Shown in pieces: positions 45,379-53,689 of a DNA stretch of 64,000 nt. Position numbers and translations under genes: made by a program. The stretch lies in assembly GCF_058153355.1 (NCBI RefSeq), contig NZ_CM177019.1. One strand, given 5' to 3'. Each line of letters starts with the position of its first letter. Positions within the stretch are counted from its first letter, which is position 1. The notes beneath the pieces are model-generated. The model was given only the letters and a program-made list of their open reading frames with translations, searched no databases and was not told where the DNA came from.

Positions 45379-46632
45379 ATGTCGGGATCCAACACAGCAA
45401 TCAGCCGTCGTCGTTTACTGCAAGGCGCGGGTGCCATGTGGCTATTGAGCGTAAGTCAGGTCAGTCTGGCTGCGGTCAGCCAGGTCGTGGCGGTGCGCGT
45501 CTGGCCTGCGTCCAGCTACACCCGTGTGACGGTAGAATCTAATCGTCAGCTGAAATATAAGCAGTTCGCGTTGAGTAACCCTGAACGCGTGGTGGTGGAT
45601 ATCGAAGATGTAAACCTGAACTCAGTGCTCAAGGGGATGGCGGCACAAATTCGTGCTGATGACCCGTTCATCAAGTCGGCGCGCGTCGGGCAGTTTGACC
45701 CGCAAACCGTGCGGATGGTTTTTGAGTTAAAGCAAAACGTAAAACCGCAGCTGTTTGCCCTTGCTCCGGTCGCCGGGTTTAAAGAGCGTCTGGTGATGGA
45801 TCTCTATCCTGCCAATGCTCAGGACATGCAGGACCCGCTGCTGGCGCTGCTGGAGGATTACAATAAAGGCGATCTCGAAAAGCAGGTGCCGCCTGCGCAG
45901 AGTGGCCCGCAGCCAGGCAAAGCAGGGCGCGATCGTCCGATTGTCATTATGCTTGACCCTGGCCATGGCGGCGAAGACTCCGGTGCGGTGGGGAAATACA
46001 AAACGCGTGAAAAAGACGTGGTATTGCAAATTGCCCGCCGTTTGCGCTCTCTGATTGAGAAAGAGGGCAATATGAAAGTTTACATGACCCGTAATGAAGA
46101 CATCTTCATTCCGTTGCAAGTGCGCGTAGCAAAAGCACAGAAACAGCGTGCTGACTTGTTTGTCTCTATTCATGCCGATGCCTTTACCAGTCGCCAGCCG
46201 AGCGGTTCCTCTGTGTTTGCGCTCTCTACCAAAGGTGCAACCAGTACCGCGGCAAAATATCTGGCGCAAACTCAGAACGCCTCGGACTTGATTGGTGGCG
46301 TGAGTAAGAGCGGCGACCGTTATGTCGACCATACTATGTTCGATATGGTGCAGTCGCTGACCATTGCCGACAGTCTGAAGTTTGGTAAAGCTGTGTTGAA
46401 TAAGCTCGGTAAAATCAACAAGCTGCATAAAAATCAGGTTGAACAAGCCGGGTTTGCCGTGCTGAAAGCGCCTGATATACCCTCCATTTTGGTCGAAACG
46501 GCGTTTATCAGTAACGTTGAGGAAGAACGTAAACTGAAAACGGCAACCTTCCAGCAGGAAGTTGCGGAATCAATCCTCGCAGGGATAAAAGCGTATTTTG
46601 CCGATGGGGCGACGCTGGCGAGAAGGGGATAA
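45379..46632 (+). CDS. amiC: N-acetylmuramoyl-L-alanine amidase AmiC (Tat signal)
   Basis: [23 protein letters not shown]… twin-arginine signal; amidase_3 domain. Confidence 0.92.
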
Positions 46633-46804
46633 TGTTTTTATTTATTCAATGAATTTATATTTCGTTGAATAGATAATATTTACCTGAATATTAGACGTTG
46701 GTTTTGTGACTGATGTCGAATATTTGAATGTCGGCTTGAAAAATAAGCCGACCATCTCTTTAATTAAGCACAATTCCGTGTAATGTATATGCATTAGTTA
46801 ATCA

Positions 46805-46879
46805 TCTTGTAACTGTTAAATCAGGCAAGGCAATGTTTGAAGTAATTATTACTTCTGACGTGCCTTGCCTTTTTTTTTG
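46805..46879 (+). promoter_or_regulatory. Putative RAT (ribonucleic antiterminator)-like element overlapping an intrinsic terminator, leader of the accessory PTS operon
   Basis: TCTTGTAACTGTTAAATCAGGCAAGGC resembles BglG/LicT RAT consensus (GGATTGTTACTG…GCAGGCAAAACC); overlapping hairpin AGGCAAGGCA…TGCCTTGCCT followed by T9. Confidence 0.55.
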
Positions 46880-46889
46880 GAGCTATGGA

Positions 46890-47714
46890 ATGATCATCGA
46901 AAAAGTCATGAACAATAATTGTGTACAGGCATCGATGAATGGACAGGAGGTTATCATTTCTGGGCCTGGCGTCGGTTACAACAAAAAATATGGAATGTCG
47001 GTCCCTGAGCATCCGGCTAACCGGATTTTTTATGTCAGAAATGAACAAAAAAATAAACTCTACAAATTGATTGAACATGTGGATATTGAGTATGTTTTTG
47101 TTGCCGAAAAAATAGTGCAATATGCGGAGAACAATCTCGAAAAAAATCTCAATCCATCGCTACTATTGATTCTTGCTGATCATATTTCGAATGCAATATC
47201 CCGAGTCGCTTCAGGCATACAAATTAATAATGTTTTCCTTGATGAAATCAAAGCGTTGTACAAAGCAGAGTATGCGATAAGTCGCGATGCATTAACTATC
47301 ATTAATGAGCAATTCAGCGTTCAACTTCCTGATGATGAGATTGGTTTTATAGCATTGCATATTTTAAATAATTATGAAAATTCAGTTGATTATGAATCAG
47401 TACGGATTATTGAGTTGTCGCAAATAATCACGGGGCTTATTGAAGTTGTTTATAACAGAAAGGTGGACAGAAGTTCATTTAATTATTCCAGGTTCATGAT
47501 ACACCTTAAATATTTTTCAAGTCGCGTATTATGCAATGAAAAAATAAAACAGAAAGATATTGGTGATCTCTATGAACAGTTTCTTGAGAAAGACATTCTG
47601 TTACAGCGCGCAATTCATGAAATTGAAAGGTATTTGTACGCCACTTTTAAATATGAATTGATTTTGGAAGAAAAACTATATCTCTCTATTCGCACCAAAG
47701 TATTAATGGACTAA
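46890..47714 (+). CDS. BglG/LicT-family transcription antiterminator (CAT RNA-binding domain + PRD domains)
   Basis: ORF 46833..47714; start placed at ATG 46890 with GGAG 8 nt upstream; N-terminal CAT-like region (MIIEKVMNNNCVQASMNGQEVIISGPGVGY…) and PRD-like segments; AT-rich. Confidence 0.75.
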   Translation: MIIEKVMNNNCVQASMNGQEVIISGPGVGYNKKYGMSVPEHPANRIFYVRNEQKNKLYKLIEHVDIEYVFVAEKIVQYAENNLEKNLNPSLLLILADHISNAISRVASGIQINNVFLDEIKALYKAEYAISRDALTIINEQFSVQLPDDEIGFIALHILNNYENSVDYESVRIIELSQIITGLIEVVYNRKVDRSSFNYSRFMIHLKYFSSRVLCNEKIKQKDIGDLYEQFLEKDILLQRAIHEIERYLYATFKYELILEEKLYLSIRTKVLMD

Positions 47715-47745
47715 TTATATATAACATTTATATGAGATAACCCGC

Positions 47746-49326
47746 ATGAAACAAAAGAAAGCCTGGAGTTTTTTTCAGAGCCTGGGAAAGGCATTTATGT
47801 ATCCCATCGCTCTGCTAAGTGTATGTGGCATGATGTTAGGGCTAGGAAGTGGTTTAGCCAGCGATGATATGGCAAAATTAATTCCACTACTGGCTATTCC
47901 CGTAATTAAAACCATTCTTGATTTTATTGTTAGCCTTGGTTTGTTTGCCTTTGTCAATTTACCTGTATTGTTTGCGATAGCTATACCTCTGGGGTTATTA
48001 AAAGAGAAAGAGGATAAAGCCTATGGCGCTTTTTCTGGCTTAATTGGTTTCATGGCGATGCATCTGGGAACGAACTTTTATCTTAAACAACATGACTTAT
48101 TGGTCGCTGCTGATCAAATGTCGACACATGGGCAAACCATTATTCTGGGAATCCAGTCCTACAATACCAGTGTGTTGGGTGGGATTATAGCAGGATTATT
48201 AGTCGCCAGTATGTATAAAAAGATCGTTAACTTACGTATTCCTGAATCATTAGGATTTTATAGTGGCCCACGCCTGGTGCCTATTATTACACTGATTGTG
48301 ATGAGCGGATTTGGTCTGATCATCCCTTTTATCTGGCCGCCATTTTTCAATCTTTTCATGCTCATTGGCCACTGGATTTCAACTTCCGGTCCTGTTGGCT
48401 ATTTTTTCTATGCAGTCGCCGAACGCGTGACGATACCTTTTGGTTTAAATCACCTGGTGACGTCAGTTTTCCGCTTTACCCCCATCGGCGGATCGGCAGT
48501 GATCGGCGGAGAAGAGTATTATGGCACCCTGAACATGTTTATGGCGTACGTCAAAGAGAATGCGGTCATTCCGCTGGATTTGGCGGGGAAAATGGAACAG
48601 GGCAAACTGATGATTCAGTATGGTCTGGCTGGTGCCGCGCTGGCGATGTATCGCACTGCTCATGCTCAAAACAGAAAAGCTATCAAAGCATTGCTTATTT
48701 CCGGGGTGCTTACAGTCATTATTGGCGGCGTCAGCGAACCGATTGAGTTTCTGTTCTTATTTGTCAGTCCACTGCTATTTGTCTTCCATGCTTTTATGAA
48801 TGGATTCGCCAACATGGTCTTGCCATATATGGGCGTGAAGATGGGATTTACTGGCGATCTGATTCAATTTATTAGCTTTGGCGTATTGCGTGGCACAAGA
48901 ACAGGTTGGCCAATAGCGGTGTGTGTCGAAGTGGCCTATTTCTTTATTTATTACTTTGTGTTCCGTTGGACTATTCTCAAATTTAACCTGATGACGGTAG
49001 GCCGTGAAGAGTCCAGTCCTGTCACGCTGAACGCTCATGAGGATACGGCTATAGCGGATATCCCAACGCTTGATAAATCAGAGCTGCAAGCAGCGGAGCA
49101 GATGGTTAAGGCACTTGGTGGTAAAGAGAATATTAAATCCCTGGATAATTGCGTAACTCGTTTACGTTTAACAATCGCAGATATGGGATTGATTGACGAG
49201 GCAGCAATAAAAAGAGCTGGCGGAATTGCGGTTGTTAAACTTGATCAAAATACCCTACAAGTCATTATCGGTACTAAAGTCATCGCCTTGCGTCGGGATA
49301 TGGATAACTACATGGGGATATGCTGA
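47746..49326 (+). CDS. PTS EIICB component, glucose/maltose (MalX-like) family
   Basis: 526-aa ORF, multi-TM EIIC followed by a C-terminal EIIB domain with phosphorylatable Cys motif (NCVTRLRL). Confidence 0.85.
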   Translation: MKQKKAWSFFQSLGKAFMYPIALLSVCGMMLGLGSGLASDDMAKLIPLLAIPVIKTILDFIVSLGLFAFVNLPVLFAIAIPLGLLKEKEDKAYGAFSGLIGFMAMHLGTNFYLKQHDLLVAADQMSTHGQTIILGIQSYNTSVLGGIIAGLLVASMYKKIVNLRIPESLGFYSGPRLVPIITLIVMSGFGLIIPFIWPPFFNLFMLIGHWISTSGPVGYFFYAVAERVTIPFGLNHLVTSVFRFTPIGGSAVIGGEEYYGTLNMFMAYVKENAVIPLDLAGKMEQGKLMIQYGLAGAALAMYRTAHAQNRKAIKALLISGVLTVIIGGVSEPIEFLFLFVSPLLFVFHAFMNGFANMVLPYMGVKMGFTGDLIQFISFGVLRGTRTGWPIAVCVEVAYFFIYYFVFRWTILKFNLMTVGREESSPVTLNAHEDTAIADIPTLDKSELQAAEQMVKALGGKENIKSLDNCVTRLRLTIADMGLIDEAAIKRAGGIAVVKLDQNTLQVIIGTKVIALRRDMDNYMGIC

Positions 49327-50501
49327 TGGATGTTTTTAATACTCCTATTTCCCGCAAAGGAACATATTGTACCCAATGGGACTTTTGCGAGGACAGATTT
49401 GGTGTAAAAGATGTATTACCATTCTCTATTTCAGATATGGATCTTCCGATACCGGAAGCTATCATCAGGGCATTAAGAAAACGTCTGGAACACCCGATTT
49501 TAGGGTACAGCCGTTGGCAGCATGATGACTATCTGAATGCGATAGTCAATTGGTATCATCAACAATATAAAACTGAAATCAAACCAGAATGGATCACCTA
49601 TAGCCCAAGCGTGATGTACTCCATTGCTAAAGCAATAGAGTTATTGACATCGCATGGTGATAATATTCTCGTTTTTACACCTGTCTATAATGCATTTTTT
49701 GATATAATTAAACATAGCGAGAGAAATATTCTGACAGCCTCTTTGATTATAAAAAATGAGGGGGGCTACGCTATCAATTGGCAAGATTTTGATCTTAAGA
49801 TTCAAAGCGCAAAGATGGTGTTATTATGTAATCCTCATAACCCGACAGGAACCGTCTGGTCGGAAGAAGAGCTGCATAAAATCGCTGCAAGCTGTGCAAG
49901 ACATAATGTCTGGTTATGTTCAGATGAAATTCACAGTGATTTTGTTTTTAATCGTAGCTTTACATCTGCGCTTAAAATAAAAAAAGAAAAAGTAGTGGTG
50001 TTTAATTCGATATCGAAGACATTTAATGTTCCTGCGCTAACAGGATCGTATATGATTTCAACTGACGATAATTTTAATCATAAGTTCAGAACGATATCAA
50101 GATATCGCGATTTTGTAAACTCCCCATCCGTACTGAATATAATTGCAACTATTATTGCCTATAACGAATGTGAGGGATGGTTAACGTCATTAAAGGCACA
50201 TATTGCCTCTAACATTCAATTCACCCAGCAGTATCTGAACGAAAATACTCCAGAATTGATCGTAAGGCCAGCTGATGGTTGCTATTTTTCGTGGATAGAT
50301 TGCTCTGCTATTGGTTATCCCTTTGATGAATTCTACAGTCGATTAATTCATGAAGGCAAAGTGGGCATTATGGCGGGGAATGTCTATGGAACGGAGGGGG
50401 AGGGCTACCTTCGTCTGAACCTGGCCTGCGGTCGAGAAAAATTATATATGGGGCTTACGCGTCTTGCGAGTGTAATTAAAAATATTAATCAAGGAAAATA
50501 A
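49320..50501 (+). CDS. PLP-dependent C-S lyase / aminotransferase, MalY/PatB-like paralog
   Basis: Conserved blocks shared with MalY: TYCTQWDF, LPFSISDMD, GYSRW, CNPHNPTG, SDEIH, NSISKTFNVPALTG (PLP lysine). Confidence 0.8.
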   Translation: MLMDVFNTPISRKGTYCTQWDFCEDRFGVKDVLPFSISDMDLPIPEAIIRALRKRLEHPILGYSRWQHDDYLNAIVNWYHQQYKTEIKPEWITYSPSVMYSIAKAIELLTSHGDNILVFTPVYNAFFDIIKHSERNILTASLIIKNEGGYAINWQDFDLKIQSAKMVLLCNPHNPTGTVWSEEELHKIAASCARHNVWLCSDEIHSDFVFNRSFTSALKIKKEKVVVFNSISKTFNVPALTGSYMISTDDNFNHKFRTISRYRDFVNSPSVLNIIATIIAYNECEGWLTSLKAHIASNIQFTQQYLNENTPELIVRPADGCYFSWIDCSAIGYPFDEFYSRLIHEGKVGIMAGNVYGTEGEGYLRLNLACGREKLYMGLTRLASVIKNINQGK

Positions 50502-50503
50502 AA

Positions 50504-51100
50504 ATGAACAGCACGGATCTTATCCATCTCATTAAACATTTTATGCGTAACGAACATAAAGCAGTTGAAGAAGTTATTGATTCTCCCCTTTCGGAGGTCG
50601 CAAATTTAATTAAAGTATTACAGTCTTGTCAGGGGAAAGTTGTTTTTATTGGTGTCGGTAAGTCCGGTATTATTGCCCGAAAACTCGCCGCAACATTTGC
50701 CAGCACTGGAACTCCCTCGTTTTTTGTTCACGGTACTGAAGCCGTACACGGCGATCTTGGGATGGTGGCGAAAGATGATGTTGTTATTCTTATTTCAAAC
50801 AGTGGTGAGACGACAGAAATCCTGGCAACACTACCTAGTCTGAAAAAAATGGGTAATTATTTGATCTCCTTTACCCGCAGTCATCGCTCATCGCTTGCGA
50901 TAAGTTGTGATTTATCCGTTGAAATTCCCGTAAAAAGTGAGGCGGATAATTTAGGTTTAGCGCCGTCATGCTCATCAACAGTCGTTCTGGTTGTTGGTGA
51001 TGCGGTGGCGCTTGCGCTCTCCGAATTGAAAAAGTTTACTCGTGCTGATTTCGGCTTATATCATCCAGGAGGTGCGCTCGGTATTAAAGCAAACTCATAA
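50504..51100 (+). CDS. SIS-domain sugar-phosphate isomerase-like protein (KdsD/GutQ-like SIS domain, no CBS domains)
   Basis: VVFIGVGKSGIIARKLAATFASTGTPSFFVHGTEAVHGDLGMV closely resembles the KdsD/GutQ SIS core; only 198 aa. Confidence 0.75.
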   Translation: MNSTDLIHLIKHFMRNEHKAVEEVIDSPLSEVANLIKVLQSCQGKVVFIGVGKSGIIARKLAATFASTGTPSFFVHGTEAVHGDLGMVAKDDVVILISNSGETTEILATLPSLKKMGNYLISFTRSHRSSLAISCDLSVEIPVKSEADNLGLAPSCSSTVVLVVGDAVALALSELKKFTRADFGLYHPGGALGIKANS

Positions 51101-51161
51101 TTTTAGAATATAAAACAGTAACCGGTCACGCCATCTTTTGGGGTGGCGTTCATTGATGTGA

Positions 51162-52118
51162 GTGTCAGCTATGAAAAACGTTCTGGTCACCGTTCCCAGC
51201 TTTTCAGCGCGTTGTGTTTCTGCCAGCAAGCTGCTAAGAGAAAATCATTTTAACCTTATTATCAAGAATAATGTGGAGCATCTGGTTAAATCAGAATCCA
51301 CAGTATTACGAGAATCTATTTGCGCAGTCATTGCCGGAAAAGATTGTTATCAAGCGGATACGTTATCGCGACTACCAGGAGTGAAAATAATATCGAGATT
51401 CGGGACAGGGATTGATAATATTGATCTTCATACGGCTCGACAATCAGGTATTGTGGTCAATAATGCTGTTGGGATTAATTCAAATGCAGTCGCGGAATTT
51501 ATCATTGGTCTTATTTTTGCGAGCATGAGAAATATCCCCGGTAGCTATCATGCAATGCAAAATGGTTATTGGGGCGAGTCGCATGGCTGCGAGTTACAAG
51601 GTAAACGTATTGGCCTGCTTGGCTATGGCAATATTGGCAAAACACTGGCGAAAAGGTTATCTGGTTTTGATGTTGAGCTTTTAGCTTTTGACAAACAACC
51701 CGATTTCCAGGCCGCAGGCAAAGATGGAGTTCAGTTCGTATCAATTGAAGATATCTTTATGCAGTCTCATGTCATCATCGTTCTTTTGCCATTTTCTCCG
51801 GAGCTGGAGAACTTCATTAGTCATAAATATTTGTCGATGATGCGCAATGGTGCTCTTATCATCAACGCCGCAAGGGGAAAGTTGCTGGATGAGGGTGCTT
51901 TACTTCAGGTAATTGAAGAACGAAATGTTTTTGCAGCACTGGATGTGTTTAGCTCTGAACCGCTAGCGCAATTTAGCCCATTGCTACATGCCAGGAATAT
52001 CATTACAACGCCGCATATTGCGGCCGCCACCGTTGAGTCATACCAGCAAACCGGGATATACGTTGCCAGGTCGATAATAGATTTCTTTGCAGGAAGGGAG
52101 ATAAAAAACGTGCTGTGA
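51162..52118 (+). CDS. D-isomer-specific 2-hydroxyacid dehydrogenase family protein (NAD-binding)
   Basis: 318-aa ORF with GLLGYGNIGKTLAKRL Rossmann motif, family catalytic His/Arg context. Confidence 0.8.
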   Translation: MSAMKNVLVTVPSFSARCVSASKLLRENHFNLIIKNNVEHLVKSESTVLRESICAVIAGKDCYQADTLSRLPGVKIISRFGTGIDNIDLHTARQSGIVVNNAVGINSNAVAEFIIGLIFASMRNIPGSYHAMQNGYWGESHGCELQGKRIGLLGYGNIGKTLAKRLSGFDVELLAFDKQPDFQAAGKDGVQFVSIEDIFMQSHVIIVLLPFSPELENFISHKYLSMMRNGALIINAARGKLLDEGALLQVIEERNVFAALDVFSSEPLAQFSPLLHARNIITTPHIAAATVESYQQTGIYVARSIIDFFAGREIKNVL

Positions 52119-52147
52119 GGTCAGCTAAGGAAGATTTCAGGTACAAA

Positions 52148-52182
52148 AAAACCGCAATCTGTGAAACACATTGCGGTTTATC
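52148..52182 (+). terminator. Putative terminator hairpin downstream of the accessory operon
   Basis: AACCGCAAT-…-ATTGCGGTT inverted repeat after the dehydrogenase stop; weak T-tract. Confidence 0.45.
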
Positions 52183-52196
52183 AGCATCATAAGTGT

Positions 52197-52273
<77 letters not shown>

Positions 52274-52306
52274 TCACCGTACTGCTTTACTTCATCAAAT
52301 TTTGAT

Positions 52307-52383
<77 letters not shown>

Positions 52384-52591
52384 TCCGTGGATGCGCACTA
52401 TACTCCGCTCGCGTTTTCATGCAACCTTTTTTTTACCCGGATCACGGATTTGGCATGATTTTGAGCAAAAACAAATCACTAAAGCCTGTTTTTTGTGCAA
52501 AATTTGCGTCAGGGAGAGGCTGCTCATTTCATTAAACGCGGCGGTTTGTTATCTTCATTGCGCCTTATTTTTTAAACTGAAGAAGAGAACA

Positions 52592-53689
52592 ATGAAAGGA
52601 CGTTGGGTAAAGTACCTTCTTATGGGCACGGTTGTGGCAATGCTTGCCGCCTGCTCTTCCAAACCAACCGATCGCGGACAGCAATATAAAGACGGGAAAT
52701 TTACCCAGCCTTTCTCTCTGGTAAACCAGCCAGATGCCGTTGGCGCGCCAATTAACGCCGGTGATTTTGCCGAGCAAATTAACCATATCCGTACTTCGTC
52801 ACCGCGTCTGTATGGCAACCAGAGTAATGTTTATAATGCGGTGCAGGAGTGGCTACGCGCAGGCGGTGATACCCGCAATATGCGTCAGTTCGGCATTGAC
52901 GCCTGGCAGATGGAAGGTGCCGACAACTATGGCAACGTGCAGTTTACGGGCTATTACACGCCTGTCATTCAGGCGCGCCATACCCGTCAGGGCGAGTTCC
53001 AGTATCCTATTTACCGTATGCCGCCAAAACGTGGTCGTCTGCCGTCTCGTGCGGAGATCTACGCGGGAGCATTGAGCGATAAATACATCCTCGCTTACAG
53101 CAACTCTCTGATGGATAACTTCATTATGGATGTGCAGGGTAGCGGGTATATCGATTTTGGTGATGGCAGTCCGCTTAACTTCTTCAGCTATGCCGGAAAG
53201 AATGGTCATGCCTATCGCAGTATTGGTAAGGTGCTGATTGACCGTGGCGAAGTGAAAAAAGAAGATATGTCGATGCAGGCGATTCGTCACTGGGGTGAAA
53301 CACACAGTGAAGCCGAGGTTCGCGAGCTGCTGGAACAGAACCCGTCTTTCGTCTTCTTTAAACCGCAATCTTTTGCTCCGGTGAAAGGGGCAAGTGCGGT
53401 GCCGCTGGTTGGTCGCGCTTCAGTTGCGTCCGATCGTTCCATTATCCCGCCTGGTACAACCTTACTGGCAGAAGTGCCGCTGCTGGATAATAACGGCAAA
53501 TTTAACGGTCAGTACGAACTGCGGCTGATGGTGGCGCTGGATGTCGGTGGTGCAATCAAAGGCCAACACTTCGATATTTATCAAGGTATCGGGCCGGAAG
53601 CCGGACACCGCGCAGGTTGGTACAACCACTATGGACGTGTTTGGGTGCTGAAAACCGCCCCGGGCGCAGGTAACGTCTTTAGCGGCTGA
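52592..53689 (+). CDS. mltA: Membrane-bound lytic murein transglycosylase A (lipoprotein)
   Basis: MKGRWVKYLLMGTVVAMLAACSS lipobox; 365 aa; the ORF-track N-terminal extension overlapping the tRNA is discounted. Confidence 0.92.
   Translation: MKGRWVKYLLMGTVVAMLAACSSKPTDRGQQYKDGKFTQPFSLVNQPDAVGAPINAGDFAEQINHIRTSSPRLYGNQSNVYNAVQEWLRAGGDTRNMRQFGIDAWQMEGADNYGNVQFTGYYTPVIQARHTRQGEFQYPIYRMPPKRGRLPSRAEIYAGALSDKYILAYSNSLMDNFIMDVQGSGYIDFGDGSPLNFFSYAGKNGHAYRSIGKVLIDRGEVKKEDMSMQAIRHWGETHSEAEVRELLEQNPSFVFFKPQSFAPVKGASAVPLVGRASVASDRSIIPPGTTLLAEVPLLDNNGKFNGQYELRLMVALDVGGAIKGQHFDIYQGIGPEAGHRAGWYNHYGRVWVLKTAPGAGNVFSG

Follow-up and report, generated by a model that had tools for sequence, protein, structure and literature searches.

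The window analysed here, i.e. the whole stretch of 64,000 nucleotides taken from contig NZ_CM177019.1 (NCBI RefSeq assembly GCF_058153355.1), carries an operon of five genes located between amiC and the tRNA-Met genes. The fourth of these genes, whose start codon is an ATG, codes for the SIS protein on which this analysis is centred. The features of the region are the following:

46806..46878, + strand, leader with a RAT-like target and an intrinsic terminator (from fold and conservation)
46890..47714, + strand, BglG/LicT-family transcription antiterminator (Pfam CAT_RBD and PRD; RefSeq start taken from strain 24A16CRGN010)
47746..49326, + strand, PTS EIICB, MalX-like, of the glucose/maltose family (Pfam PTS_EIIC and PTS_EIIB; no EIIA domain)
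49326..50501, + strand, PatB/MalY-family PLP-dependent C-S lyase or aminotransferase (TIGR04350; Pfam Aminotran_1_2; RefSeq 'MalY/PatB family protein')
50504..51100, + strand, SIS gene, 198 aa, predicted CBS-less single-SIS arabinose-5-phosphate isomerase (API), ortholog of CFT073 c3406
51171..52118, + strand, D-isomer-specific 2-hydroxyacid dehydrogenase, phosphoglycerate-dehydrogenase-like (Pfam 2-Hacid_dh and 2-Hacid_dh_C; RefSeq coordinates)
52197..52383, - strand, two tRNA-Met (CAT) genes of the metZWV cluster, at the island boundary (ARAGORN and Rfam)

All five operon genes are intact, with lengths matching those of CFT073, and the gene order beside amiC in that strain (PRD antiterminator, PTS EIIC(B), MalY/PatB, SIS, dehydrogenase) is the same as here. 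The antiterminator matched the NCBIfam LicT model at 2e-67, under its cut-off, and scored 227 bits with Bacillus LicT vs. 105 bits with E. coli BglG. The EIICB matched TIGR02004 (malX) at 5.7e-161, a score below the cut-off of this model, and is therefore a paralog and not MalX itself; the PatB/MalY-like protein reached 368 bits against TIGR04350, for a cut-off of 340. As for the dehydrogenase, its match to TIGR01327 (6e-62) also lies under the cut-off. The association of an EIICB with a MalY/PatB-like C-S lyase (47746-50501) is the same pairing as in malX-malY of K-12, of which the two genes of the window form a paralogous counterpart, both proteins being, with respect to malXY, paralogs that remain under the equivalog cut-offs. 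The K-12 malXY locus is not known to contain an SIS isomerase, a dehydrogenase or an antiterminator. The stop codon of the PatB gene and the start of the SIS gene are 2 nt apart, and the two genes overlap in Atlantibacter and Enterobacter, an arrangement which suggests that they are translationally coupled.

Concerning the surroundings of the operon, CFT073 has a complete type VI secretion cluster beyond the operon as seen from amiC, whereas in the window (46633-52196) the operon directly abuts tRNA-Met; at this site the operon can thus be separated, as a module, from the T6SS island. Two tRNA-Met (CAT) copies are present here vs. three in strain 24A16CRGN010, indicating a variable number of metZWV genes in tandem. 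An entry of the ORF tool at 52310-53689 runs across a tRNA, the real start of mltA being apparently at ~52589, as judged from the mltA annotation of 24A16CRGN010. Opposite the SIS gene, no competing ORF of at least 60 aa was found on the other strand; a 67-aa ORF lying within the gene in another + frame was taken as noise.

Upstream of the antiterminator gene, a RAT-like antiterminator target, CTTGTAACTGTTAAATCAGGCAAGGCAA, located at 46806-46833, extends into the 5' arm of a strong terminator hairpin (46823-46870), behind which a T-run extends to ~46878. The leader folds at -29.8 kcal/mol (z = -5.9), and none of 200 shuffled sequences gave a fold as good. The RAT/terminator core is kept in CFT073, Atlantibacter and Enterobacter sp. 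(four taxa with the window), whereas its flanks diverge. This leader gave no match to any Rfam family, and the Rfam scan of the operon returned tRNAs only, plus a sub-threshold YrlA match located over them and probably due to tRNA-like noise; matches in a promoter scan were no more numerous than in shuffled sequence. The 46806-46833 target resembles the RAT sequences of Bacillus and E. coli, and a RAT overlapping a terminator is the standard arrangement for antitermination of the BglG/LicT type, which depends on a PTS substrate. As far as the sequence indicates, such substrate-dependent antitermination at the leader is the probable switch of the operon, and the SIS enzyme would then be made only when the sugar of the operon PTS is present.

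In the SIS protein, PF01380 (SIS) was the only Pfam domain above threshold (E=1.1e-25, residues 41-170); SIS_2 gave a sub-threshold match, and no CBS domain was found by Pfam over the 198 aa. The top NCBIfam match was KdsD (4e-58, model positions 36-201 of 328), with TIGR00393 (KpsF/GutQ) at 1.7e-56 (model positions 1-152 of 268) and GutQ at 7e-48, the protein covering only the N-terminal SIS half of each of the three models. The TIGR00393 score of 191.8 bits lies just below the cut-off of 203.7, and the protein is far under the curated full-length cut-offs of the KdsD and GutQ equivalog models. When aligned with K-12 KdsD and GutQ, the SIS protein was found to end four residues past HPGGALG, exactly where the CBS pairs of the two K-12 proteins start. 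Having no C-terminal CBS pair and sub-cut-off scores, it therefore belongs to a CBS-less subclass and is not a canonical member of the KpsF/GutQ/KdsD family (TIGR00393/PRK10892); 'KpsF/GutQ family sugar-phosphate isomerase' is the routine RefSeq annotation of the gene. The preliminary description, made from the letters of the DNA, had proposed an SIS core without CBS domains and had called for an HMM domain scan: the scan bears this out, with SIS found, CBS absent and the KdsD model as best match, and the KdsD/GutQ-like motif that had been claimed, GKSGIIARKLAATFASTGTPSFFVHGTEAVHGDLGMV, is indeed present, its first residue being residue 52 of the protein.

The active-site positions of KdsD are taken here to be K59, H88, E111, E152 and H193, following structural work on KdsD and on the B. 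fragilis API. They align with K53, H82, E105, E146 and H187 of the SIS protein, respectively. All five positions are invariant in the alignment of the SIS protein with its CFT073 counterpart, KdsD and GutQ, and they are kept in 111-112 of the 112 full-length short homologues. A loss of conserved catalytic residues had been named in the preliminary description as an argument against its own reading; all five KdsD positions are present. In the KdsD-type family, the C-terminal His of HPGGALG is donated to the neighbouring subunit, and it is because this catalytic His is retained that the protein can be said to reach just past the SIS fold.

Such conservation of the catalytic residues also bears on the possibility that the protein is a non-catalytic sugar-phosphate sensor, comparable to an RpiR/MurR-type SIS domain without HTH, which would regulate the operon. 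Although SIS domains of the regulators RpiR/MurR/AlsR/HexR were matched among the NCBIfam models, these matches are weak (E ~1e-6 to 1e-9), i.e. less significant than that of KdsD by some 50 orders of magnitude, and a regulator, composed of the antiterminator and the RAT, is already present in the operon. A sensor is accordingly considered highly improbable.

As for the deglycase activity that had been put forward as an option, it found no support in a protein with a single KdsD-type SIS domain and the KdsD active-site residues. The known deglycases of the FrlB/GfrF type are GlmS-like, with two SIS domains in about 330-340 aa; a ketosamine-6-phosphate deglycase of this type was rejected, the protein having a single SIS in 198 aa. 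Matches to models of the GlmS/GlmD/NagB-II type were weak (1e-6 to 6e-4, vs. 4e-58 for KdsD).

A search of solved structures with the SIS protein returned PDB 5UQI/5VHU, a "phosphosugar isomerase" of 198 aa (E=8.8e-121), the chain of which is exactly the translation of CFT073 C_RS16165 (RefSeq protein WP_001066223.1). The SIS protein and that of C_RS16165 have the same length and are identical at 192 of 198 residues (97%); the six differences (S3N, R15H, H18L, V32F, T104A and R128H) are conservative or peripheral, and none of them falls in a conserved column. We infer that C_RS16165 corresponds to locus tag c3406, since it is the only SIS gene of the cluster and is identical to the PDB chain, the RefSeq table showing no old tag. 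The c3406 gene has in common with that of the window its 198 aa, its single-SIS architecture, its operon and its site beside amiC. The SIS protein is the ortholog of the characterised and crystallised c3406 protein, and as such is already known.

The abstract of Mosberg et al. reportedly describes c3406 as resembling the SIS domain of APIs without the CBS pair, and is said to give API activity for the recombinant protein; deletion of c3406 alone reportedly left mouse colonisation unimpaired and deletion of c3405-c3410 impaired it. The 2011 work of Mosberg et al. (J Bacteriol 193:2981) on the UPEC API is cited in two papers, and a review sentence in one of them has this API implicated in UPEC pathogenicity. 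According to the title of that work and this review sentence, API activity has been published for c3406, which is 97% identical to the protein of the window. The 'minimal sugar-phosphate isomerase' of the preliminary description has thus proved to be the ortholog of a protein published as an API and with a solved structure. In a genome comparison (PMC2831201), c3405-c3410, labelled "PTS system, maltose/glucose specific", were placed inside PAI-CFT073-metV.

The preliminary description had also left room for a truncated remnant, i.e. a gene of the KdsD/GutQ/KpsF type having lost its CBS domains via a deletion or a premature stop. The restriction of the KdsD and KpsF matches to the N-terminal half of each model and the score slightly under the TIGR00393 cut-off go in this direction. 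However, the ortholog of CFT073, which lies in this operon too, is just as long, the gene being annotated at 597 bp in both CFT073 and 24A16CRGN010 (the two records with annotation that were inspected), while that of Atlantibacter hermannii has 201 aa (85% identity; same operon, same amiC/mltA site) and that of Enterobacter sp., where the operon has four genes, 196 aa. Ortholog length thus varies only from 196 to 201 aa across four taxa, and the operon is found in 1686 E. coli genomes. The best 120 homologue clusters, from Enterobacteriaceae and many Firmicutes (among them Lactiplantibacillus, Companilactobacillus, Mammaliicoccus, Virgibacillus and Enterococcus), are all short (at most 218 aa), with SIS as sole Pfam domain, so that the ortholog lengths, for which a check had been proposed, are those of short SIS-only proteins without CBS domains. 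Furthermore, the identity of the SIS protein with the short proteins of Firmicutes is 52-60%, vs. 48% with KdsD and 37% with GutQ of E. coli, its C-terminal catalytic His motif is kept, and the crystallised protein has the same length. Finally, the gap between the SIS stop codon and the next gene (51171) is only ~70 bp, too short to contain a decayed CBS pair, and it holds no CBS debris. The remnant is refuted on these grounds, its probability being close to nil.

The reading retained here, to which we attach a probability of about 90%, is that the SIS gene codes for a complete and functional single-domain sugar-phosphate isomerase, a CBS-less ortholog of c3406, and stands fourth in a low-GC operon that was acquired horizontally and is probably controlled by antitermination.

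Compared with the canonical E. coli APIs KdsD and GutQ (and also KpsF), which have 321-328 aa and a C-terminal tandem CBS pair, the protein of the window lacks this pair, the identity of the SIS domain being 48% with KdsD and 37% with GutQ over the aligned part. The genes also differ by their loci, which are those of LPS, sorbitol or capsule for KdsD, GutQ and KpsF vs. a PTS/PatB operon for the SIS gene. Other stand-alone SIS proteins resembling APIs are the Bacteroides fragilis API (PDB 3ETN), a Listeria protein (PDB 3FXA), the Clostridium tetani API (Cech et al. 2017) and the APIs of phages RB69 and DLP3. They share with the SIS protein a single SIS domain, a size of ~200 aa and a C-terminal H-x-G-G-x-L-G, but their identity to it is lower and their roles are different (Kdo or capsule synthesis, DNA arabinosylation). 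In the search of solved structures, 3ETN and 3FXA were both matched at E ~5e-30; for the phage DLP3 API, 5uqi is among the top structural matches listed.

At a coverage of at least 80%, the operon was found in 1686 of the 5426 complete E. coli genomes (~31%). It occupies the same chromosomal site in Atlantibacter as in E. coli, whereas Enterobacter sp. possesses, at a different chromosomal site, a four-gene core (antiterminator, EIICB, PatB and SIS) without the dehydrogenase. The absence of the dehydrogenase from this version suggests that it is accessory to the core pathway. The Enterobacter sp. four-gene version (3413-7591 of the compared locus) adjoins fruBKA-like genes. GC content is 33-46% across the operon (46300-52000) vs. 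52-56% in the argA/amiC and mltA/tcdA flanks. This low GC, the LicT-like antiterminator and the closeness of the SIS protein to Firmicute proteins point to horizontal acquisition of the operon from a low-GC, Firmicute-like source.

In the Firmicute neighbourhoods of short SIS homologues that were examined, the operon was not reproduced and no pointer to the substrate was found. Two kinds of neighbourhoods were observed around the short SIS homologues of Gram-positives (Lactiplantibacillus, Companilactobacillus and Mammaliicoccus lentus): an EIIC-GAT (galactitol/ascorbate-type) PTS with DHDPS-like and KDPG-type aldolases on the one hand, and a LacI-SIS-PfkB kinase-MFS transporter cluster on the other hand. 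In either case, the genes could serve to break down a pentose or a sugar acid; Gram-positives have no Kdo.

Like c3406, the SIS enzyme would interconvert D-ribulose 5-phosphate and D-arabinose 5-phosphate (A5P), by means of a KdsD-type SIS active site including the C-terminal His and in the absence of the CBS pair which has a regulatory role in KdsD, GutQ and KpsF. Judging from its gene context, what the adjacent PTS delivers is a plausible substrate, and in vivo the enzyme may link the catabolism of the PTS sugar to the pentose-phosphate pathway, or else add to the A5P supply.

Another view of its in vivo role is that it isomerises or deglycates some other sugar phosphate derived from the substrate of the MalX-like PTS, the API activity being a promiscuous side reaction. 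In three genera, the SIS gene is tightly linked, with probable translational coupling, to the genes of the PatB-like protein and of the PTS, which is consistent with this, as is the fact that close homologues occur in Firmicutes, which have no LPS/Kdo, and there lie in sugar-catabolic neighbourhoods of various kinds. Adventitious API activity is shown by SIS enzymes such as GFAT, and the similar short protein of Listeria (PDB 3FXA family) is reportedly a glucose-6-phosphate isomerase and not an API, so that specificity would not be uniform within the short SIS class. On the other hand, the five KdsD active-site positions are all kept, the SIS core is 48% identical to that of KdsD, and the c3406 protein is named an API in the published work, as represented by its title and by later citations. 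A different sugar phosphate as the true substrate therefore seems rather unlikely.

It may be suggested, tentatively, that the four-gene core common to Escherichia, Atlantibacter and Enterobacter constitutes an uncharacterised catabolic route, possibly for an amino-acid- or sulfur-linked sugar, in which the substrate of the SIS enzyme would be a pathway intermediate, and the API activity either incidental or an exit into the pentose-phosphate pathway. This suggestion concerns the biology of the operon, and not the existence or the nature of the already-known SIS protein.

Since the CBS-less API of this operon was biochemically described in 2011 and crystal structures of it exist, the gene carries little weight as a discovery. 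The operon was reportedly first described in a handful of pathogenic strains, and is said to contribute to the colonisation of the urinary tract by CFT073. Its presence in ~31% of the complete E. coli genomes, as well as in Atlantibacter and Enterobacter, makes it far more common than those originally described strains implied, and the identity of the sugar taken up by its PTS would explain a known fitness locus.
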